DNA of 64,000 bases from Minisyncoccota bacterium (GTDB lineage Bacteria > Patescibacteriota > Minisyncoccia > Phycocordibacterales > UBA9973). A program made the position numbers and the translations under genes. This document shows positions 7,757 to 49,728 of the stretch, in pieces. Each line of letters starts with the position of its first letter. Position 1 is the stretch's first letter. A model generated the notes under the pieces. That model had not been told where the DNA came from. It made no database searches and worked only from the letters and a program-made list of their open reading frames with translations. The stretch is from positions 244,468 through 308,467 of the forward strand of contig DASWWS010000001.1 in the NCBI GenBank assembly GCA_036405895.1, read 5' to 3'.

Positions 7757-8700
7757 GATCCATCCTTTCAGTATGCATTATGGGACTCACGGGCTTGCTC
7801 ATGCTTGCCATTCTTTTGCCGACACAAACCAGAGAAATGGCGGAGAATATTCTCTCAGGCGCCAACACCTTCTCATCGTATCTTCCTGTTCTTGATTCCG
7901 ACACTAAAAAAGAGGAGGAGATAAATGACCCCATTACAGAGAAAAAGCCGCTCGACACGATAGAGAGCGCAGTAAAGACCGTTATTGATGCTGTCTCTCC
8001 ATCAAAAGAGAGCGCTCCAAAAAGCGACAACACTCTGACAAACGCAAATATTGTCGACGCAACAAATGCCGAGCGCATTAAGCTTGGCCTCACCCCGCTT
8101 TCAACAAATGCAAAGCTTACCGCTTCGGCAAAAATAAAAACCGAGGACATGATAAAGAACGGATACTTCGAGCACGTTTCTCCGGACGGCGTGGCAGTTT
8201 CCGACCTCGGCACGCAGGTAGGGTATGACTACGTCATCATGGGCGAGAACCTTGCTTTAGGGAACTTCTCCGGAGCCGACGACCTTTTGCAGGCATGGAT
8301 GAACTCTCCCGGACATCGAGCGAATATTGTCAGCGAGAGCTATATGGAAATCGGCATCTATGCGGCACAAGGGCAGTATCAGGGCCGAAAGGTATGGTTT
8401 GCAGTGCAGCACTTTGGCACAGCCCGCGGCGCATGCCCGGTAGTGGACCAACAGCTTAAAGACGATATCGATGACTTCAATACGGCACTTCGTGCAAAGG
8501 AAAAGAAAATCACGGTCCTTCGTGCAGAGCTCGAAGGTATGGAGCAAAACGACAATGAGTATCAAGAGAAGGTTGCTATATTCAACGCCCTTGTTGCCGA
8601 GTACAATTCACAGCTCGCCATGTCCCAAGCCGCCATTGCACGGTACAACAAGCAAGTTGTCGCATTCAATAAATGTCTCGCACAGTATCAGGGGGAATAA
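7750..8700 (+). CDS. Membrane-anchored CAP/SCP (PR-1-like, YkwD-type) domain protein with C-terminal coiled coil
   Basis: N-terminal TM; CAP motifs GYFEHVSPDG, GENLALGNFSGADDLLQAWMNSPGHRANI, YMEIGI; heptad-rich tail. Confidence 0.65.
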   Translation: MLRSILSVCIMGLTGLLMLAILLPTQTREMAENILSGANTFSSYLPVLDSDTKKEEEINDPITEKKPLDTIESAVKTVIDAVSPSKESAPKSDNTLTNANIVDATNAERIKLGLTPLSTNAKLTASAKIKTEDMIKNGYFEHVSPDGVAVSDLGTQVGYDYVIMGENLALGNFSGADDLLQAWMNSPGHRANIVSESYMEIGIYAAQGQYQGRKVWFAVQHFGTARGACPVVDQQLKDDIDDFNTALRAKEKKITVLRAELEGMEQNDNEYQEKVAIFNALVAEYNSQLAMSQAAIARYNKQVVAFNKCLAQYQGE

Positions 8701-8725
8701 TTTAAAAATAGTAGGGAAGTAGGAA

Positions 8726-8757
8726 AGGGGTATTGGGCAGATACCTCTTTTCTTTTA
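8726..8757 (+). terminator. Probable intrinsic terminator after CAP-domain gene
   Basis: AGGGGTAT-loop-ATACCTCT imperfect hairpin followed by T-rich run. Confidence 0.4.
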
Positions 8758-9289
8758 TCCAATTCAACTTTCAACTAAACCACTCTCTCGATTTGTTCTA
8801 CGGGACTCGAATTAATTATCTAATTGTTGTGCTAATTATTTGGGTAATTCAAACCCTTTGTTGTTCGAGATATTCTATCCCGGGGGAATAGGGCTTTATT
8901 ATAAAGGTTAAAAATATGTAACGTCGTACAATATATCTTTTACGACATATACAGAGGGCAAATAGTCTTTATCCATAAAGCCTGTGCTTCTTGAGCTTAG
9001 GTCTGGCTCTTATGTATCTCCTCTTAATTACATCAACAAATGAGACTTGGGTCAGATTCATAATTTAGTTCACGTTTTTGATTTTTTTACAATAAAAATA
9101 ATTATCTCAATTAAGAAATGGATTACACCTTCCTAAGGAAGGTGCTGAGGTGAAGATGTTGGATATATCAGTCATTAAAAGTGTAAGACTCACTTCCCTG
9201 TTTTTATCAAAATTTCGAGGCCCTAGAATCGATTTTAAGGTGCCTTGGATTTTGAACATGAGTAAAGTCTTCGGCTATTTTATTAACTT

Positions 9290-9328
9290 AATAAAATAAA
9301 AAGAGTCTCTTTAAAAAAGAGACTCTCA
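9290..9328 (-). terminator. Intrinsic terminator downstream of 9335..9682
   Basis: AGAGTCTC-ttaaaaaa-GAGACTCT hairpin with flanking A/T runs. Confidence 0.55.
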
Positions 9329-9334
9329 TGATAA

Positions 9335-9682
9335 TCAGTTTGTGAATTTTTCAAGTGTTTGAAGAAATTGTTCAGTAATTTGATACTGTCCAGAATCATT
9401 CTTAGTAAGGTATCCAGACTTTAGTACTACAGTAGTACGCGGGACTGGTTTGCCTCCGTTTACAAGCGCTTCTAATACTCCGAGTTCGCTCTCGGTGACT
9501 AAGTGCCGGCAGAGAGATTTATAATCTTCCCATGTAAACGGAGTCCAAGCATCTTCATTGAGCTTCTGTTGAATAAAAATAATATTTTCAGAAATAGTCT
9601 CTGCTTCACTGCTGCGTAAAGCGCTTCCAACAAAGTCTCTTTTTCGAAAGCTTGCCGGGGTTATCTTTGTTATAAGGTTCAT
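9335..9682 (-). CDS. Hypothetical protein (low-GC patch)
   Basis: 115-aa ORF followed by terminator; no motif recognised. Confidence 0.35.
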   Translation of the reverse strand: MNLITKITPASFRKRDFVGSALRSSEAETISENIIFIQQKLNEDAWTPFTWEDYKSLCRHLVTESELGVLEALVNGGKPVPRTTVVLKSGYLTKNDSGQYQITEQFLQTLEKFTN

Positions 9683-9765
9683 TTTTTATATTTATTTTCC
9701 TTTACTCTACCCTATTTCTTGACAAAGTCAAGGATAATGGTAATGTAAAATAAAAAATAAGCGCT

Positions 9766-10152
9766 ATGGAGTATAGAAAAGGGTCTATGTGCAAGACTGA
9801 TCGGATTGAACACTTTATTGCTGTTCTCAATGAAGAAAAGCATTCCTGCAGCAATATGTATCAAGCATATGAGCACCTGGTTGAAAGGTTTCAGGAGATT
9901 GAACAGAAGTATTGCCCTGCAATGGAGGGCCGCATGCACTTTGGTGACTTTGAGAACTTTCTTTTTGTGAAGGAGTATTCGGTATATATGTGGGTTGCAG
10001 TGAGCCATGTCGTATTCATTCATGTGCATGGAGCGTATGGGGTGTATGAGAGAAACGACATATCCATTTTTCACAATAGAAATGTTCACACCTACAAAAA
10101 AGAAACTCCCCTTGTGTGTGTTGAAAACAGCTTAGGATACCCCTTGTGGTAA
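9766..10152 (+). CDS. Hypothetical Cys/His-rich protein (low-GC patch)
   Basis: 128-aa ORF with TTGACA-like -35 upstream; preferred over overlapping antisense 9712..10089 which is hydrophobic junk-like. Confidence 0.3.
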   Translation: MEYRKGSMCKTDRIEHFIAVLNEEKHSCSNMYQAYEHLVERFQEIEQKYCPAMEGRMHFGDFENFLFVKEYSVYMWVAVSHVVFIHVHGAYGVYERNDISIFHNRNVHTYKKETPLVCVENSLGYPLW

Positions 10153-10201
10153 TGCAACAGCCTTCAGGAAACTGGGGGTTTTTATTTGGTATACTATACG
10201 T

Positions 10202-10453
10202 ATGATCCCTCCTGAAAACAGAGTATTACTGATCAAAAACCTCAAAGCCGGGTGGAATATCCGCCATGCGTGCGACCGTTCGCATATCAGCCGCTCGAGC
10301 TTGTATCAATACTATAAAAAAGACCCGGAGTTTAAGGCATTGGTACAAAAAACAATGCATACGTTTCTTGAGCGCAAAGAGAAAAAGGAAAAGCTCTCCG
10401 CCCGCCACGCCCTGATGAAAGACAAGCAAGCCGTGCGCAACCGCTTTAAATAA
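10202..10453 (+). CDS. Small helix-turn-helix protein (transposase-OrfA / terminase-small-subunit-like HTH)
   Basis: 83 aa; GWNIRHACDRSHISRSSLYQYYKK resembles HTH_ of IS-type OrfA/resolvase. Confidence 0.35.
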   Translation: MIPPENRVLLIKNLKAGWNIRHACDRSHISRSSLYQYYKKDPEFKALVQKTMHTFLERKEKKEKLSARHALMKDKQAVRNRFK

Positions 10454-19715: not shown

Positions 19716-20279
19716 TTAGTATTTTCGCATCACTCCGCGGACGATTGCCACAATCTCAAGGCTCTCTGTCGGATAGATGTTTTTAAATGCCTTGTTGGCT
19801 GGTTCGAGCCATACTTTCTCGCCTTTCTGTTTAAAATATTTCATAGTGAACTCGCCATCGACATTTGCAATCACAATGTCGCCGTCTTTTGCGCGGTTCG
19901 TACGCTCGGCTATTACCATGTCTCCGTCTGCAATGTGCGCCTCAATCATAGAGTCTCCGTCCACTTCCAACAAATAGGTGCTCTCGCGCTTGCGCACCAT
20001 GTAGTCTTCGATATTGAGCGTGTCGGTGAGCATCTCGCCGGGTGCCGGCAAGCCCGCTTTCACTAAGCCCGCCATCGGAAGTTCGTCAAAGCTTGCACTT
20101 GGAATAAGGTGCCCGAGCTTGTCTTTCATTACTATCCCCGCTGCGATCATTTTTGTTACAACGCGCGATACTGCATTTTTGGATTTAAAGCCAAAGAGCG
20201 CCATCATTTCCGTATAAGACGGCATGCGGCGTTTATTTTGATAGAACTGTATTACTTTGGCTTGGTAGTCTCCTTCCAT
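19716..20279 (-). CDS. lexA: LexA repressor (S24 peptidase)
   Basis: N-terminal wHTH aligned to LexA; VDGDSMIEAHIADGDMV (Ser) and ...FTMKYF (Lys) catalytic dyad context; start placed at MEGDYQ (alt. ORF-track start 20306). Confidence 0.85.
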   Translation of the reverse strand: MEGDYQAKVIQFYQNKRRMPSYTEMMALFGFKSKNAVSRVVTKMIAAGIVMKDKLGHLIPSASFDELPMAGLVKAGLPAPGEMLTDTLNIEDYMVRKRESTYLLEVDGDSMIEAHIADGDMVIAERTNRAKDGDIVIANVDGEFTMKYFKQKGEKVWLEPANKAFKNIYPTESLEIVAIVRGVMRKY

Positions 20280-20280
20280 A

Positions 20281-20481
20281 CTAGTAGTTTCCGAAAACGC
20301 GAGCAAGGATTCCTTTGCGTGCTCGTGCTCTCATCGCTATACGTCTCATTGTATAACTATTGGATAGCGTAGGAAAGCCAGCAAGTACTGTGTGGGGTGC
20401 AACACGCGGTGCGCTGACTACGCTTCGCAGGCGCTCTATCTCTGAACTCACGAGCTGTTTGAATGGAGTGATTGTTCTCAT
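20281..20481 (-). CDS. Small basic hypothetical protein immediately upstream of lexA
   Basis: 66-aa ORF abutting lexA start; Arg-rich; coding status uncertain. Confidence 0.2.
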   Translation of the reverse strand: MRTITPFKQLVSSEIERLRSVVSAPRVAPHTVLAGFPTLSNSYTMRRIAMRARARKGILARVFGNY

Positions 20482-20493
20482 GGCAATAATTAA

Positions 20494-20682
20494 TTAGTTG
20501 AATGCGAGTAATAGTCGACTAAAAATTGAAGCACTGCTCTGGCGGCGGATTTGTGAAAGGAGCTGTTTGTGCTTTCGGGATTCTTCGGCGTATTTTTGTC
20601 CGCGAAGAATCTTTGCGTCGATTCGCTCGTTGAGACGAGCAAGTTCAAGTTCGATTGCTTTGGTGTATTGTGTGCGAGTCAT
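20494..20682 (-). CDS. Small coiled-coil protein, first gene of putative lexA operon
   Basis: 62 aa, helical heptads; preceded by SOS-box-like palindrome. Confidence 0.35.
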   Translation of the reverse strand: MTRTQYTKAIELELARLNERIDAKILRGQKYAEESRKHKQLLSQIRRQSSASIFSRLLLAFN

Positions 20683-20734
20683 ATACTTCTTTTATCAGTC
20701 GTTATTACTAATGGCGACCTCAAAATAAGTATAG

Positions 20735-20750
20735 GTGAACGAACGTTCAC
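20735..20750. promoter_or_regulatory. Candidate LexA (Cheo-box-like) operator tGAACgaacGTTCa
   Basis: GAAC-N4-GTTC matching CGAACRNRYGTTYC core, ~55 nt upstream of the 62-aa ORF start that heads the lexA operon. Confidence 0.35.
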
Positions 20751-20809
20751 ATGCAAGTGGATTACTCTACTATTTTATAACAGAACATGTTTAAAAGTTC
20801 GTGTCGAGA

Positions 20810-21088
20810 TTAGTAGTTGTAATACGTTGTCGTTGTTGTATTTTGCGGAGTGCTTGTAGTCGTGTAGCTAGAAGAGCTGTCAGAAGAATAGTAGCTCTGG
20901 CTTCGAGAGCTTGATACAGGAGAGATACCGCGCACTACAGTGCCTGCGCTTGCAGGAGCTGTAGTGGTGTACCAGCGGTTAGTAACAACGCCGCGGGTCG
21001 CAACGCGCGGTGAAAAATACACAATAACTGCAAGGATTGCGATGATAAGAAAGAGTGCGAGTAGTGTTCGGTCGGTAGATTCAGTCAT
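20810..21088 (-). CDS. Membrane-anchored Ser/Thr/Tyr-rich small protein
   Basis: N-terminal TM then low-complexity S/T/Y tail. Confidence 0.3.
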   Translation of the reverse strand: MTESTDRTLLALFLIIAILAVIVYFSPRVATRGVVTNRWYTTTAPASAGTVVRGISPVSSSRSQSYYSSDSSSSYTTTSTPQNTTTTTYYNY

Positions 21089-21405
21089 AAGAATATATGT
21101 GAATTAAGTTCTTATAATATGGAGCCCTTTAATAACCTGACGAGTCAGAATGCATAAGGGTTACACTGGTTCATATTATGCCATATTTTCATATAAAAAG
21201 CAATTAATAGCGAGTTAAATTAATTATGAAGGCGTTTTATTCTCGTCAGCTCACCTATTTTGAATATGACTCTTTATAGTTAGTTTTGGAACCGTCCATT
21301 TAAAGAATTACATAGTTGGAAAAACTCTAGCTTTAATTAATTCAATTACTGAGCAATAAATTGTTTCACATTTTTTATTTAAGAATAGTTTTAAAAGATG
21401 GATAA

Positions 21406-22263
21406 TTATTTTCTATATCGATTTAACAAGTATAAAATTTTATTTAATTCAAGCCAAAGATATACATATTCCTTTTCGGTGAAAATTTTAGGTTGCCCCT
21501 CTTGTTCGTGATGAATATTTTTAATTACATAATCAACAAGATTTTCAAATTCTGTATTGTTTCCATCAAATAATATATTCGATAATTCTCTTTTATTGTG
21601 CAGTCTCGGAAAAGTACCATCTCCTTTTTTATAATTATTTTGTAAAGTATTTTCAACTACTTTTTTGAGGTTACCTAGAGATTCATTGTAAAATAGTTTA
21701 TTATTTTTAGTTTTCTCTTTCTTATATAATAGAAAATCTGATACACATTTTTCATATCGTATTTTGTTATCTCCTCCTAGATCATCTCTATTAGAATTAA
21801 CAAGCTCAATACTTGCTTTATCAAGTTTTCTTTTAAACACGTGAGCTTTTTTGTCATAATAAAAATCAATATTGAAGACACTTGAATTTTCAGATTCTAT
21901 TACTAAATCAGTTAATTTAATAACCATAGTCTTCAAGTTGCTTCGTAAATCAAAAGGTACTTGATCGAAATTCCAAACTTCTTTTTTAAGATAAAGTATT
22001 ATATTAGGTAGTAGTTCATTAAAAAATGATAAAAAAATATCTTGTTCTCCACTTAGATACCCTTTCTTTAAATAATCCATTATGGTATGACCACTTCTTC
22101 TTTCGGGGCTATATCTATACTGTGAATTAATATCATCTGTAAGAAGATATGGTAATACTTCAGTTCTTTCGGCACTATCAAGCAGTTCACACGTAACCTC
22201 AAAAAAATTTTGATAGCCGTGTGCAAATTGCTCTAAATTGAGTTTTGGAAATTTATCATCCAT
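21406..22263 (-). CDS. Hypothetical protein, AT-rich island gene B (285 aa)
   Basis: Long clean ORF in ~30% GC DNA; K/N/Y/F-rich; no family motif recognised. Confidence 0.5.
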   Translation of the reverse strand: MDDKFPKLNLEQFAHGYQNFFEVTCELLDSAERTEVLPYLLTDDINSQYRYSPERRSGHTIMDYLKKGYLSGEQDIFLSFFNELLPNIILYLKKEVWNFDQVPFDLRSNLKTMVIKLTDLVIESENSSVFNIDFYYDKKAHVFKRKLDKASIELVNSNRDDLGGDNKIRYEKCVSDFLLYKKEKTKNNKLFYNESLGNLKKVVENTLQNNYKKGDGTFPRLHNKRELSNILFDGNNTEFENLVDYVIKNIHHEQEGQPKIFTEKEYVYLWLELNKILYLLNRYRK

Positions 22264-22297
22264 ACAGATATTTTAGCAAAAGTGATAAATTACACCT

Positions 22298-22771
22298 CTA
22301 TTGATCTTGTTGGTAAACCCACTCATTTAGAATATTTGCGATATTTTCTATTTCTTTTTGAACCCACAATATACAAGCTTCTTTAATATTTGAACAATTC
22401 AATGTCCTCATGGAGTTTGATATTTCTTTTTCGGTTTCATCTGTGAGATACCATAGAGGATTATAGATATTCACCTCGATGATTTTCTCAACAATCTTTT
22501 CTTGGATAAACTTTTTATCTGCTTCATACCCATAATATTCATATAAATTAAACACTAATTGAGCTGCGTGTGCCCATAAATCCTTACTTTGCTCACCACG
22601 AAGCCCAAGAATCATCTCGAGTTCATTTCCAGGAGTAGTCTCTATTTTGTGTGTTTTGAAAAGTTTTATAAGACTTCCCGATGGATTTTTAAATAAGGTA
22701 TAACCTTCTTTACTATTCTGATATGCATCTCTGAATTGGTTAATCCTATTTGTTTTATCTAGTGTAGACAT
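22298..22771 (-). CDS. Hypothetical protein, AT-rich island gene A (157 aa)
   Basis: Clean ORF 34 nt upstream of gene B, same strand; TGtTATAAT-like -10 about 8 nt before ATG. Confidence 0.5.
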   Translation of the reverse strand: MSTLDKTNRINQFRDAYQNSKEGYTLFKNPSGSLIKLFKTHKIETTPGNELEMILGLRGEQSKDLWAHAAQLVFNLYEYYGYEADKKFIQEKIVEKIIEVNIYNPLWYLTDETEKEISNSMRTLNCSNIKEACILWVQKEIENIANILNEWVYQQDQ

Positions 22772-22907
22772 GATTCATATTATAACACAAACTTGATATT
22801 AAAATAGATGAAATATCTATCTCTTTTAAAAACAAAAAGAGGGTTTTACAGGAAAAAGCATTGAAAGAGCGTGCGCACATGTATCAATTTTTGTCAGCAT
22901 ATTAGGA

Positions 22908-23783
22908 ATGCGCTATGATAGAGCTATTCCTATGAAATCGTTCCTTCGTCTCATCAAGCGTGCCTCCCGCCACTACGGCAAACACAATGCGTCACGCATG
23001 GGGGCGGCACTGTCGTATTACGCTATTTTTTCAATTGCACCGTTAACTATCCTTATCATTGCATTGGTAGGCTCTATTTTCGGAACTACGCTTGCCGAGA
23101 GCAGTGTTGTAACGCAACTTGACCGAGTGATTGGAAGCGGGGCCGGAGATTTTATCGGCGCAATCATTAAAAGCACAACACGGCACTCTTTAGGGACTAT
23201 CGGCACAATCGTAAGCATTGCCACCATTTTATTCGGCTCAATCAGCGTGCTCTCTGTTCTCGATACATCGCTTGATGAACTCTGGGAGACAAAAACTGAA
23301 AAAGAAGTCGAACCCCGTCCCTTCTTTGCCAAAATATGGAGCGCTGTCCAGCGAAAGTTTCCCGCATTTTCCCTGATTCCCATTATGGCTCTCCTCTTTT
23401 TGTTCTTTATTGCAATCAGCGTTTTCCTCTCTTTGTACCAAGAAAATTTTGGTGGTGTTCCGGGCTTTGCCATCATGGCAAATTTGATTGAACCAGTTGC
23501 ACTCTTTTTATTTGGTACTGCATTTTTTGCCTTCATCTACCGCATCTTGCCCGACAGTACGCTTCCTACACGAGCTATTCTTCTGGGCGCCATTGTTACT
23601 TCAGCACTCTTTTTGCTTGGTCGTATAATCATCGGTCTTTATATTGCGCATTTTGCTAACACTACCCTCTACGGAGCCGCAGCATCGCTTGTAGCGCTGT
23701 TGATTTGGATATACTACTCAGCCCAAGTATTTTTTTACGGCGCGTCTCTGACATACGTTTATGCGAAGAATCTCCAGAAATAA
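22908..23783 (+). CDS. yihY: YihY/BrkB family membrane protein
   Basis: MGAALSYYAIFSIAPLTILIIALVG signature, 6 TM. Confidence 0.8.
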   Translation: MRYDRAIPMKSFLRLIKRASRHYGKHNASRMGAALSYYAIFSIAPLTILIIALVGSIFGTTLAESSVVTQLDRVIGSGAGDFIGAIIKSTTRHSLGTIGTIVSIATILFGSISVLSVLDTSLDELWETKTEKEVEPRPFFAKIWSAVQRKFPAFSLIPIMALLFLFFIAISVFLSLYQENFGGVPGFAIMANLIEPVALFLFGTAFFAFIYRILPDSTLPTRAILLGAIVTSALFLLGRIIIGLYIAHFANTTLYGAAASLVALLIWIYYSAQVFFYGASLTYVYAKNLQK

Positions 23784-23796
23784 GAAAATATAAAAA

Positions 23797-23822
23797 CTCC
23801 CGCAGAGCGCGGGAGTTTTTAT
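23797..23822. terminator. Bidirectional intrinsic terminator
   Basis: CTCCCGC-aga-GCGGGAG + TTTTT. Confidence 0.65.
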
Positions 23823-23831
23823 ATTGAAGTA

Positions 23832-24158
23832 TTAGTTACCAGGGCAGGCAGCGAATTCGCAGCGAGGTCCTTGGCGTCCGACATAGGTTCCGTCAGGACA
23901 CTGTTTTGCTTCCATCGTGCAGGCAGTGAATCCGCCTTTTCCGTCCACTGATACGTCAGGCGCTGGCTGTGGGCGGGGTTCGGGAGTTGGATTCATGTCG
24001 TTGCTCCAATCATTACTGTCATCGTTAAAATCTCGGTCCATTTGGCTTGGTGTATTGTCTTCCACAACAGGCTTTTTCATTTGCATAGAGCCATACGCAA
24101 TAAGCCCGAATAAAATAACAATGCTGGCAACGGTAAGGATAATCGTGTTTTTATTCAT
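23832..24158 (-). CDS. Small secreted/anchored protein with C-terminal 4-Cys module
   Basis: N-terminal TM; tail GGFTACTMEAKQCPDGTYVGRQGPRCEFAACPGN. Confidence 0.4.
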   Translation of the reverse strand: MNKNTIILTVASIVILFGLIAYGSMQMKKPVVEDNTPSQMDRDFNDDSNDWSNDMNPTPEPRPQPAPDVSVDGKGGFTACTMEAKQCPDGTYVGRQGPRCEFAACPGN

Positions 24159-24174
24159 AAGTTTCAGTATATCA

Positions 24175-25920
24175 CTAACTCGTGCGCTTGTTGCCCATAA
24201 TCATCGTTACTGCATGGTCAAGAGACCCGGCTGGAGTAATAGTGCCGCCATTGACGAAGAATATCTCGTCGGCGCGCTCAATGGTGTTGAGTCGGTGCGC
24301 GATGATGACAAGCGTCGTTTCTTTTGGCAGTTTCTTGAGGATATCTTCGAGGAGCTGCTCGGTGACCGTGTCGATGTTTGCGGTGGCTTCGTCGAGAATG
24401 AGAAGTTTAGGGTGGCGCACCACTGCGCGCATAAAGGCGATTACTTGACGCTGCCCTAAGCTAATTGTCTCCCCTCCTCCGCCGACAACCGTATCAAGGC
24501 CGTTTTCAAATTTGCTGACAAGTTCGGTAAGTCCGAATTCTTTTACCAGTGCTTCAGCTTTCTCCTTTTCATACGTATCGCTTTGTCCGTAGAGAATATT
24601 TTCACCCACAGTGCCCGCAAACAAAAACGGTTCTTGCAGCAACATGCCAATATGCTGCGTGCGCTCGTGCGGTGTGTAGCTTCTAATATCTTTTCCTTCA
24701 AGCAGTATTGTCCCGGTTGTTGGATCAAAAAGGCGCGACATCAAAGACGCCGTAGTGGTTTTTCCGCCGCCTGTCGGACCAACCAGCGCATAAATTTTTC
24801 CAGGTTGAAGGGCAAATGAAATATCGTGGAGTACTTGCTTGCCTTCAGGATAACTAAAAGAAACATTGTTAAATTCCAGGAGTGAACCCGCAGCATTTGC
24901 AGACTCGTCCGGCACCATTACCAAGTCGCTTTCAAGCATAAGAATTGCATTGACGCGATCCCATCCTGCGAGCGCAATTTGAAATGACGCCCAAATTGCC
25001 GCAAGCTGTCTCAGTGGATTGTAAAACTGTATGACGTACGCAAGAAAGCTCACCAGTACACCGATAGTGATCGCGCCGGTGGTGATGAGATAGATCCCAT
25101 AGCCCAACACGGCAAGCTGCGCTATGTGGGCAAACAGCCCGTAGAGCGGGGTAAAGAGGTTGTTGGCGATCCCGGAATCCACCGCCGTAGCGAAATTTGT
25201 TTCGTTTGCCGCGGCAAAGTTGCTGCGCAAATAATCGCGCCGATTGAATGCAACCGTTACCTTAAAGTTATCGAGCCCTTGCTGCACTTCGGCGCTGAGG
25301 CTTCCGGACTGCTTCAGCGTTGCAACATTTTTTCGCTTGATCCATGGCGATACGGCGCGCGTAATGATAAAAAGAATCACCGCCGGAAGAATTGCCGCGA
25401 GAGCCAAGCGCCAATTCATAATGAAAATAAAAACAATCGTACCAAGCATCAATACTACGCTGCTGACAAGCTGTATCAGGGATTGAGAGAAAAAGTTGTT
25501 GAGCTTTGTCGTATCGTTGTTGATTCGGGAAATCAGGTCGCCTGACTTGTTTTGATTAAAGAATGCAACCGGCAGTTCTTGAAGCTTTGTAAAAATCGCA
25601 TTTCGAAGCGTATAGAGCATGCGCTGCGCAACACCGCCCATGATGGATGTTTGAAAATAGCCAGTAATGAATGTTCCCACGAATAATACCAAGAGTATGC
25701 CGGCGATGCCGATAAGCCCCGAATATTCTTTGGGAACAATATAGCGGTCGATCGCAATACCCATTACAAACGGCACAAGAAGGATAAGCGCCGAATTAAG
25801 GATGATTGCAGTAGTCGAAAGCACGAGCTGCTTTTTTTCATGCGCAACAAGACGGTAGAGCGTTTTGAGCGCTTTAGCGGTGGTAGTTTTTTGCGTATCG
25901 GTATTAAGTGTGTAATTCAT
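24175..25920 (-). CDS. ABC exporter, fused permease/ATPase (type I exporter, MsbA-like) subunit B
   Basis: 6 TM N-domain; Walker A GPTGGGKTT, LSGGQRQ, Walker B LILDEATA. Confidence 0.85.
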   Translation of the reverse strand: MNYTLNTDTQKTTTAKALKTLYRLVAHEKKQLVLSTTAIILNSALILLVPFVMGIAIDRYIVPKEYSGLIGIAGILLVLFVGTFITGYFQTSIMGGVAQRMLYTLRNAIFTKLQELPVAFFNQNKSGDLISRINNDTTKLNNFFSQSLIQLVSSVVLMLGTIVFIFIMNWRLALAAILPAVILFIITRAVSPWIKRKNVATLKQSGSLSAEVQQGLDNFKVTVAFNRRDYLRSNFAAANETNFATAVDSGIANNLFTPLYGLFAHIAQLAVLGYGIYLITTGAITIGVLVSFLAYVIQFYNPLRQLAAIWASFQIALAGWDRVNAILMLESDLVMVPDESANAAGSLLEFNNVSFSYPEGKQVLHDISFALQPGKIYALVGPTGGGKTTTASLMSRLFDPTTGTILLEGKDIRSYTPHERTQHIGMLLQEPFLFAGTVGENILYGQSDTYEKEKAEALVKEFGLTELVSKFENGLDTVVGGGGETISLGQRQVIAFMRAVVRHPKLLILDEATANIDTVTEQLLEDILKKLPKETTLVIIAHRLNTIERADEIFFVNGGTITPAGSLDHAVTMIMGNKRTS

Positions 25921-48742: not shown

Positions 48743-49118
48743 TCATTTCAATACTCTCTTCCTCTTCTGCTGCATAGTCTTCGGGGGTGGTGCACGATTC
48801 CCACTCTTCTGCATATTCTTCGCACGCAAGGGCTGTGGCAACCCCCTCTTCAACAAGCGCGTGCATGCACGCATCACTGTCTTCTGCATTTGCGCACGCA
48901 TGAGAAAGCGCTCGCGCTCCCACCATTGCTTTGGCGTAATAGTATTCTTCATCAGTGGTACACACTTCCTGCGCAGGGTCACAAGAAAGCTCAACCGCTA
49001 TATCAAAATTGAGCGCTCTGTAGTACAGATAAAAATTTATCGCGAGTGCGCTGGCAAGAAGCAATACCGTGAGTAGTATAAAAAAACGGCTTCCCTTTTT
49101 TGCAGTAGGAATATCCAT
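48708..49118 (-). CDS. Membrane-anchored acidic Cys-containing small protein
   Basis: N-terminal TM, highly acidic C-tail; 35-nt overlap with preceding gene. Confidence 0.35.
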   Translation of the reverse strand: MDIPTAKKGSRFFILLTVLLLASALAINFYLYYRALNFDIAVELSCDPAQEVCTTDEEYYYAKAMVGARALSHACANAEDSDACMHALVEEGVATALACEEYAEEWESCTTPEDYAAEEEESIEMNESENEEEYGE

Positions 49119-49170
49119 AGAATGAAAACATTATACCATGCATTAAAAAAGACGCCTTATTATAGGCGTC

Positions 49171-49671
49171 TTACAATAGAGAGCTAACGATGCTGTACCA
49201 GAACGCGGACCAGATAATACACGAAAGTATTGTACTGATAATTAAAATCAGATGGTCTCTTTTTTTAAATCCTTGAAATGCCGGACCTTTTCTTGTATAG
49301 AGCACTACCAAGAAAGGGTCATACCATGTGAGGAAAAGAAGTACAGGCACTTCACCGCCGTAGCGATAAAGGAAAAAAAGTATTTTTTCCACCCGGTTTT
49401 TTTTCTCATTGCTAATAAGCAGCTCTTTCAAACTTTTGAATTTCTCAAAACCGAAAATATCCTTTTTAAGGAAATCGTAAAGAAAAACAAGGCAATAGTT
49501 GAGAGTGAGCGCGCTGGCCATTAAGATAATAAAGCTCATCAAAAGATGTTCCTTAAAATAATACGTTATAAACGGGTAGATTCCCCAATCGAATATCCAT
49601 CCAATGGTTTCGATTGTCGCAACTCCTCCCAGTAAAAGAAAGAGTTTGCCAAGTAGTTCTTTCTTTTTCAA
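49171..49671 (-). CDS. Integral membrane protein, hypothetical
   Basis: 166 aa, 4 hydrophobic helices. Confidence 0.4.
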   Translation of the reverse strand: MKKKELLGKLFLLLGGVATIETIGWIFDWGIYPFITYYFKEHLLMSFIILMASALTLNYCLVFLYDFLKKDIFGFEKFKSLKELLISNEKKNRVEKILFFLYRYGGEVPVLLFLTWYDPFLVVLYTRKGPAFQGFKKRDHLILIISTILSCIIWSAFWYSIVSSLL

Positions 49672-49728
49672 TTGTCAGTGTATTTGTTTACATTATATCA
49701 TTTTTTTATATAAAGTCAATAGAATAGT

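Follow-up and report, generated by a model that had tools for sequence, protein, structure and literature searches.

An acquired AT-rich segment of a Patescibacteria genome carries two orphan genes, one of them encoding a putative HEPN-like protein

In a 64,000-nt stretch of a Minisyncoccota bacterium genome (assembly GCA_036405895.1, contig DASWWS010000001.1, positions 244,468 to 308,467; hereafter the window), we identified an AT-rich segment (21236-22848) which is firmly supported as a horizontally acquired, strain-variable replacement of a two-component gene cluster. The segment is a mosaic: its two genes, ORF A and ORF B, are single-gene modules which circulate independently of one another, and each of them has a separate -10-like element. 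Our preferred interpretation, which we rate at a probability of roughly 0.45, is that these are two independent defence-island cargo genes and that ORF B encodes a non-canonical effector with a HEPN-like fold. Exact copies of both proteins occur under the tags VGE18_01500 and VGE18_01505 in a metagenome-assembled genome of Candidatus Paceibacterota (Patescibacteria). The coordinates of the features are collected in Table 1; loci fetched for comparison are designated by L numbers.

We found that the block 21089-22907, singled out as conspicuously AT-rich in an earlier sequence-only reading of this DNA, has a G+C content of 28.8%, whereas the window averages 45.9% (z = -4.9, calculated over all 1,819-nt windows of the 64 kb, standard deviation 3.4%), which bears that reading out. 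It is the lowest-G+C block of the window, the runner-up (37.9%) lying near 8.7 kb, and its edges are sharp at ~21100 and ~22900 in 100-nt bins. Taken separately, ORF A has a G+C content of 32.1% and ORF B of 27.0%, and the two non-coding flanks have 27.8% and 28.7%. The two genes are co-directional and separated by a 34-nt spacer; their positions and strand were correctly given before. The block is neighbored on one side by a gene encoding an S24-peptidase LexA-like protein together with three small ORFs, and on the other by a gene for a YihY/BrkB membrane protein.

The evidence for replacement comes from loci fetched via close BrkB homologues, namely L019 (93% protein identity), L020 (87%) and L021 (61%). 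All three share the order lexA-64aa-62aa-92aa, followed by a divergent OmpR-type response regulator gene and brkB, and L019 additionally holds a histidine kinase gene and a 637-aa gene in the slot. Neither ORF A nor ORF B occurs in L019, L020 or L021, and no response regulator was found anywhere in the 64-kb window. By blastn, the left flank (window 20479-21235) corresponds to L019 1-757 at 99.3% identity and the right flank (22849-24318) to L019 5020-6482 at 90.5%; together with junction alignments, this sets the breakpoints at 21235/21236 and 22848/22849. Hence, 1,613 bp of the window take the place of 4,262 bp of L019, and the displaced content comprises the response regulator, a 39-aa ORF, the histidine kinase and the 637-aa gene. 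The last 18 codons and the stop of the 637-aa gene persist in the window before brkB (residues 620-637 vs. window 22849-22902, 94% identity, E 1e-4, tblastn), and because this remnant has been kept, the island-bearing state is the derived one. Horizontal acquisition, as had been supposed, is thus upheld by clean breakpoints and by absence from three related genomes which retain the lexA-...-92aa/brkB synteny. As for the extent of the island, the AT-rich foreign segment is real, but its true bounds are narrower than the 21089-22907 originally assigned: positions 21089-21235 are native, being 98.6% identical to L019 611-757 of an island-free sister strain and 77% to L020, and positions 22849-22907 belong to the remnant of the native 637-aa gene.

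Identity to L019 is uniformly 99-100% along the left flank, and swings between ~79 and 100% in 150-nt bins along the right flank, which covers brkB and the next gene. Recombination within one species-level population has made a mosaic of the right-flank region. The position beside lexA, to which significance had been attached as proximity to the SOS regulator, is incidental; we rejected a LexA/SOS connection of the island because the relatives carry unrelated, ordinary two-component genes in that slot.

Two of the usual marks of a genomic island, compositional deviation and absence at the syntenic site of relatives, are present here. Mobility signatures (integrase or recombinase, direct repeats, tRNA target) are seen solely at homologous loci: the foreign segment contains no recombinase or other mobility gene, a repeat search of the window revealed no significant flanking or direct repeats at the island ends, and no tRNA gene lies across the 64 kb. 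Rfam returned zero matches on the island, and the promoter and terminator scan of the window gave counts not beyond shuffled expectation.

At the DNA level, the island matches other loci in two distinct blocks, and nothing bridges them. The ORF B block (21405-22275) is 72% identical to L011 and 66-75% to other ORF B loci, and the block comprising ORF A and its -10 element (22299-22791) is 79% identical to L010. Homology to the ORF B loci begins at ~22275, that to L010 ends at 22299, and on its outer side the L010 homology stops at 22791, just past the TGTTATAAT element. Searches with hidden Markov models (HMM) of every ORF in all fetched loci detected ORF A in L010 and nowhere else outside the window; it was not found at 10 other ORF B loci, nor was ORF B found in L010. 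Comparison of the two families by hhalign gave no relation between them. The genes are not conserved as neighbours, and neither protein has a recognisable antitoxin, regulator or toxin domain in Pfam, NCBIfam or PADLOC. The earlier view of a compact operon, toxin-antitoxin (TA) pair or functional cassette is not supported, in view of the separate DNA homologies, the lack of co-occurrence elsewhere and a -10-like element preceding each gene. Both genes are under purifying selection, with ratios of nonsynonymous to synonymous substitution rates (dN/dS) of ~0.25 for ORF A vs. L010 and ~0.15 for ORF B vs. L011.

ORF B represents a rare family. Among 5.8 billion proteins we found 35 homologues at 45-65% identity, with all named records belonging to Patescibacteria, and just 5 species genomes out of 185,579 encode the gene, among them one represented by a 3-kb contig binned as a Woesearchaeota archaeon. 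When 1.84 billion proteins were searched exhaustively by HMM, 40 representatives were obtained, including one false positive (P0064), a eukaryotic insect-allergen repeat protein of 1,713 aa whose score was inflated by eight repeats and which was rejected. A PF09138 tag on P0005 was likewise judged spurious; no other family member bears it. Distant members (19-32% identity) share chiefly the C-terminal half, and the C-terminal third is the most conserved. Residues Y170, L196, H251 and H252 are invariant in the family, Y268, W270, L271 and N274 are near-invariant, and R/K145, D148, K200, E204, N249, E265 and E272 are strongly conserved. The family motif reads ..N-I-H-H..(10)..EKEY.YWWLE.NK.IYLL, with a [K/x]-N-I-H-H core. 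Viral contigs, INPHARED phages and PLSDB plasmids contain no relatives of ORF A or ORF B.

The best structural matches of the AlphaFold2 (AF2) model of ORF B (mean predicted local distance difference test score, pLDDT, 86.4) are HEPN domains. A Foldseek search of this model against PDB and BFVD gave nothing significant, and a sequence and profile search of PDB with the family gave 0 hits. The HEPN superfamily is characterized by a four-helix up-down bundle and an Rx4-6H motif in which the residue after R is usually N, D or H (PMC3710099); some recognised families are without the R or the H and have alternative residues instead (PMC3710099). ORF B is probably HEPN-like by its modelled fold and non-canonical in its motif, its conserved polar residues making up a candidate active site.

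Elsewhere, ORF B is often preceded by one particular tRNA gene. Of the 11 ORF B loci with a visible upstream side, 7 have a co-directional tRNA-Glu(CUC) gene upstream of ORF B, at a distance of ~10-38 nt in L005-L009 and L016, the surroundings of which otherwise differ. The seventh, L001, has a Shedu sduA gene (PADLOC 4e-67) placed after the tRNA and ahead of ORF B; sduA shares 8 nt with ORF B, and its start is exactly at the point where ORF B usually begins, behind the TCGTGCTAGCACGA leader, a 14-bp palindrome also present in L005 and L008. ORF B is found without any tRNA in the window, L003 and L011. Shuffled sequences give hairpins at least as good as those of the tRNA-ORF B spacers, which are weak (-3.6 to -7.4 kcal/mol) and are not terminators. 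Because the gap leaves no room for a promoter, ORF B at the tRNA loci is probably expressed by read-through from the tRNA gene. The G+C content of ORF B is 27-36% within loci or hosts of 32-49%. In L001, L006 and L008 the dcw cluster has its Mur-ligase end turned toward the tRNA-ORF B unit, and in L016 the unit follows that end. This suggests a recurrent variable hotspot, and the tRNA-Glu(CUC)/dcw-end site may be a conserved variable or defence hotspot in Patescibacteria. Variable genes were also observed between the tRNA-Glu(CUC)/ORF B unit and the dcw cluster.

Several ORF B homologues have defence-type neighbours in addition to SduA. In L003 an AbiD gene (6e-79) is located 94 nt upstream of the homologue, in L008 a GmrSD_N+HNH gene 63 nt downstream, and in L005 an OLD/AriA/GajA-like ATPase gene is found downstream. 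The upstream neighbour in L011 encodes a 587-aa protein with a weak TnsA-like/PD-(D/E)xK match. The latter contig (JBAZVA010000127.1, 3,158 bp), which holds the closest ORF B DNA relative (72%), is binned as a Woesearchaeota archaeon, which reflects either mis-binning or transfer between bacteria of the Candidate Phyla Radiation (CPR) and DPANN archaea. The AbiD-ORF B pair (L003 1-4168) stands beside a serine recombinase gene, a gene for a REP_ORF2-G2P rolling-circle Rep protein and unknown genes, an arrangement which points to the integration of a plasmid-like or phage-like element into this Patescibacteria genome, the G+C content of which is ~32%.

One of the tRNA-linked loci, L008, contains a 17-nt exact direct repeat (1509-1528 and 2457-2476; 20-24 nt with 1-2 mismatches, E 4.5e-5) which brackets the ORF B homologue alone. 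The repeat consists of the tRNA-Glu 3' end and the left half of the TCGTGCTAGCACGA palindrome; a degenerate stretch resembling the tRNA T-arm precedes the second copy, and homology ends at the palindrome centre, which is where a site-specific crossover would be expected to leave it. The two copies look like an attL/attR-type pair around a single-gene unit of ~0.95 kb. Such att-type repeats were not found for the tRNA 3' end in the six other tRNA-linked loci (±6 kb), nor was the tRNA-end/palindrome leader found on viral contigs.

As for ORF A, only three homologues were found (70-78% identity). The extended -10 element noticed earlier is present as TGTTATAAT and lies so close to the ATG (7 nt) that it suggests a leaderless or near-leaderless transcript; both the element and its spacing are conserved upstream of the homologue in L010, the only other ORF A locus examined. 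In this low-G+C Patescibacteria contig (L010 705-7164) a complete Gabija pair (GajA 7e-245, GajB 4e-212) comes first, then a gene for an unknown protein of 168 aa, and then the ORF A homologue, which is followed by a serine recombinase gene; a putAbiC gene is nearby. The region has the look of a defence island carried by a recombinase in a CPR genome. The AF2 model of ORF A is poor (pLDDT 55.9) and unfit for a fold search, and Pfam, NCBIfam, PHROGs, PADLOC and PDB (sequence and profile) hold no match. We infer that ORF A is a separate small helical protein travelling with mobile defence islands.

Taken together, these data allow a tentative course of events to be outlined. Recombination within the mosaic, often-recombining region would have swapped the segment for the two-component cluster between the lexA operon and brkB. 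The ancestral home of ORF B would lie directly 3' of tRNA-Glu(CUC), at a variable or defence hotspot. ORF B may act alone as an abortive-infection or defence-type effector, with its variable N-terminal helical region serving as a sensor or regulator and its conserved C-terminal part forming a HEPN-like helical bundle. The catalytic or RNA-binding site could be composed of H251-H252 with Y170, E204, E265, Y268, W270 and N274, in place of Rx4-6H, and upon infection ORF B would cleave or sequester RNA. Such an effector role is plausible; it draws on one structural method and on guilt by association. The defence-island flavour proposed from the sequence alone can likewise be plausibly inferred, from the location of ORF B homologues beside SduA, AbiD, GmrSD-like and OLD/AriA-like genes, of an ORF A homologue beside Gabija and a serine recombinase, and from the HEPN domains among the structural matches of the ORF B model.

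A number of observations weigh against this interpretation. Rx4-6H is absent from both proteins and from every column of the family alignments (A1 with 31 sequences, A3 with 32), and Pfam, NCBIfam, PHROGs and PADLOC are empty for ORF A and ORF B, in keeping with the sequence-only reading, which had seen no clear motif of this kind and nothing assignable to a known family. The missing motif lowers the case for HEPN fold membership without excluding it, because some recognised HEPN families lack R or H. No recurrent family emerged across 32 ORF B members; the matches are isolated, with AbiJ_NTD4 in Pfam (E 0.0012), and PDC-M41A (5.5e-4) and DruF (5e-3) in PADLOC (PADLOC-DB v2), in one member each. 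Alignment of the ORF B family with an AbiD sequence by hhalign indicated no relation (probability 0.2%). Neither protein is tied to any defence family by experiment or sequence profile, ORF A offers no structural or functional clue whatsoever, and the guilt by association is based on about five loci, with L006, L007 and L009 having no defence neighbour at all. Moreover, some HEPN domains are catalytically inactive, e.g., that of AbiA, which serves dimerisation (PMC11077055).

Among the other explanations, a TA or two-component abortive-infection (Abi) pair, in which ORF B would be the HEPN-like toxin and the upstream ORF A its antitoxin under a shared ORF A promoter, would agree with the compact co-directional layout, with the HEPN-like fold, as HEPN toxins are usually partnered (PMC3710099), and with the occurrence of the exact A-B pair on several contigs of the same population. 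We regard it as improbable, as every other examined ORF B locus is without ORF A and the sole other ORF A locus without ORF B, DNA homology breaks off inside the spacer, ORF B stands solo in L006, L007 and L009, and ORF A has no DNA-binding, MNT or other antitoxin-type domain and no relation to ORF B by hhalign. Little probability is also left for both genes being cargo or remnants of a decayed mobile element, selfish or neutral orphans. Such an origin would account for the failure to assign a function from sequence, for the lack of mobility genes and the 170 nt of homology-free AT-rich DNA in the island, and for the L003 and L010 homologues residing in elements with serine recombinases and a Rep protein; yet dN/dS values of 0.15-0.25 on both genes, a polar motif of ORF B that is invariant even across members of 19-30% identity, and the lack of homologues on viral contigs, phages or plasmids speak against it.

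ORF B could also be an accessory factor of RNA or tRNA metabolism, or an RNA-binding factor, co-transcribed with tRNA-Glu(CUC), in which case the defence genes would merely be co-residents of the hotspot. Its place directly after this tRNA in six loci, and one gene away in a seventh, in differing surroundings, the spacers devoid of terminators, the three loci with no defence neighbour, and the existence of HEPN-fold domains that are non-catalytic RNA binders (PMC3710099, PMC11077055) all fit this possibility. We consider it unlikely in view of the very patchy distribution (5/185,579), the G+C content of ORF B consistently below that of its hosts, the tRNA-less copies in the window, L003 and L011, the att-like repeat in L008 and the strain-specific replacement in the window. 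Equally drawn from the tRNA-linked loci is a more specific scheme, which we hold doubtful: ORF B as a previously undescribed, CPR-specific single-gene defence cassette of ~1 kb with a palindromic insertion site 3' of tRNA-Glu(CUC), expressed by read-through and having a HEPN fold with a new His-His site, its leader/att site accepting swapped nucleases (Shedu, GmrSD-like), and the window being a secondary relocation joined to ORF A as another orphan defence gene. Very improbable, in our estimation, is a mobility function of ORF B as a new kind of integration or recombination factor in a mini-element targeting the tRNA-Glu(CUC) 3' end with defence genes as cargo. Its tRNA-proximal position is typical of island integrases, the L008 repeat brackets ORF B alone with homology ending at the palindrome centre, SduA in L001 has this palindromic leader in front of it as well, and conserved Tyr, His and Arg/Lys residues are available; however, the modelled fold is not that of a recombinase catalytic domain, and on fold grounds a tyrosine or serine recombinase-type integrase was rejected. 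A similarly slight chance is given to ORF A or ORF B being a homologue of LdgA or DdgA, hence an already described defence gene whose mechanism is not known. The latter two are Patescibacteria-restricted defence proteins obtained by functional metagenomic selection (Cell Host Microbe 2025; PMC12366544), and the description of a Patescibacteria-restricted orphan fits ORF A and ORF B as well; the ORF B family is very rare, though, and Patescibacteria orphan families are many. We retain two independent cargo genes, one of them a putative HEPN-like effector, as the preferred interpretation.

Table 1. Features of the acquired segment, its borders and the ORF B loci (window positions unless a locus is named)
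Feature	Position	Strand	Remarks
Foreign AT-rich segment	21236..22848		1,613 bp; breakpoints by blastn and junction alignments; G+C profile
ORF B, 285 aa, mostly alpha-helical, HEPN-like fold (predicted)	21406..22263	-	Rare orphan family
ORF A, 157 aa, orphan, helical (predicted)	22298..22771	-	Three known homologues
Extended -10 element TGTTATAAT	22779..22787	-	Ends 7 nt before ORF A ATG
Junction of the two gene modules, 34 nt	22264..22297	-	Homology blocks stop in spacer
-10-like TAAAAT, candidate promoter	22275..22270	-	6 nt before ORF B ATG; putative function
AT-rich non-coding DNA, 170 nt, downstream of ORF B	21236..21405		No homology to fetched loci, no Rfam match
Inverted repeat CTCTTTT-N7-AAAAGAG	22821..22841		7 nt inside right breakpoint; upstream of ORF A promoter; partly included in repeat family D15
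3' remnant of 637-aa gene	22849..22907	+	tblastn and alignment to L019
Native intergenic DNA	21089..21235		98.6% identity to L019, 77% to L020
tRNA-linked ORF B sites	L005 5898-6003; L006 5890-6003; L007 5889-6003; L008 1443-1546; L009 5890-6003; L016 4919-5003; L001 4839-6008		
tRNA-Glu(CUC)/ORF B unit at the Mur-ligase end of the dcw cluster (mraZ-mraW-ftsL-PBP-mur)	L001 7033-11772; L008 5652-8476; L016 48-4896; L006 12525-12855		

Apart from the island, some other features of the region were noted. The lexA-like S24 peptidase gene is followed by three small ORFs (~64, 62 and 92-95 aa) in all relatives, and this four-gene unit is located at 19716-21088 (-) in the window, 3714-5092 in L021, 2-1261 in L020 and 16-610 in L019. 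The third small ORF encodes a transmembrane segment and a Ser/Thr/Tyr-rich tail; none of the three small proteins has a Pfam assignment. A second low-G+C patch (34-40%) at 8700-10450, downstream of a gene for a CAP-domain protein, comprises two orphan ORFs with no Pfam match, of 115 aa (9335-9682, -) and 128 aa (9766-10152, +), and a gene for an 83-aa HTH_23-like protein (10202-10453, +); it may be another acquired segment. A short patch of 36% G+C at 49000-49700 holds a 166-aa multi-pass membrane ORF (49171-49671, -).

As an object the island is ordinary, i.e., accessory cargo in a variable slot. It is its content that is unusual: an undescribed CPR-restricted family, HEPN-like by prediction, with a non-canonical motif and linkage to tRNA-Glu(CUC). 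Patescibacteria represent a large part of bacterial diversity, but the number of defence systems recognised in their genomes is very small (PMC12366544). Should ORF B prove to be a working effector, its family would be a defence family restricted to one phylum, with an active site of HEPN type that is non-canonical. The 3' side of tRNA-Glu(CUC), which often faces the dcw end, would become a searchable landmark for CPR defence genes, and the window would provide a natural case of a strain-level swap in which a streamlined genome exchanged regulatory genes for defence cargo. Should ORF B have no part in defence, the tRNA-Glu linkage would still mark an uncharacterised RNA-associated function.

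In comparison with the single-protein HEPN Abi effectors (AbiD/AbiF/Abi2 PF07751, AbiV, AbiJ and the AbiA HEPN domain), ORF B gives no profile match, possesses an invariant I-H-H dyad instead of Rx4-6H, is nearly confined to Patescibacteria and is linked to tRNA-Glu(CUC). It differs from the HEPN/MNT (HepT) and RnlA/LsoA toxins in having no MNT, RnlB or LsoB-like partner, ORF A not being co-conserved, in being twice the size of a minimal HEPN toxin and in the absence of the catalytic Arg. The homologous ORF B loci resemble tRNA-adjacent defence islands in their location at the tRNA 3' side, exchangeable defence genes and drop in G+C, and in one of them, L008, the tRNA 3' end recurs as a direct repeat of att type. 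Yet, they have no integrase within 6 kb, the repeat-bounded unit of L008 is just ~0.95 kb long with one gene, and in the window ORF B lies away from any tRNA, in place of a two-component cluster. With Shedu, ORF B shares the locus L001, where the two genes overlap and the tRNA-proximal leader employed by ORF B at other loci serves SduA instead; Shedu, however, is a single-gene system, and ORF B is not a component of it because it occurs without SduA at all other loci, including the window. Finally, ORF A and ORF B are, like LdgA of oral Nanosynbacter and DdgA from soil (PMC12366544), orphan, almost Patescibacteria-only single proteins, a likeness by description only, and the latter two provide a precedent that CPR orphans can be true phage-defence genes working in E. 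coli (PMC12366544).

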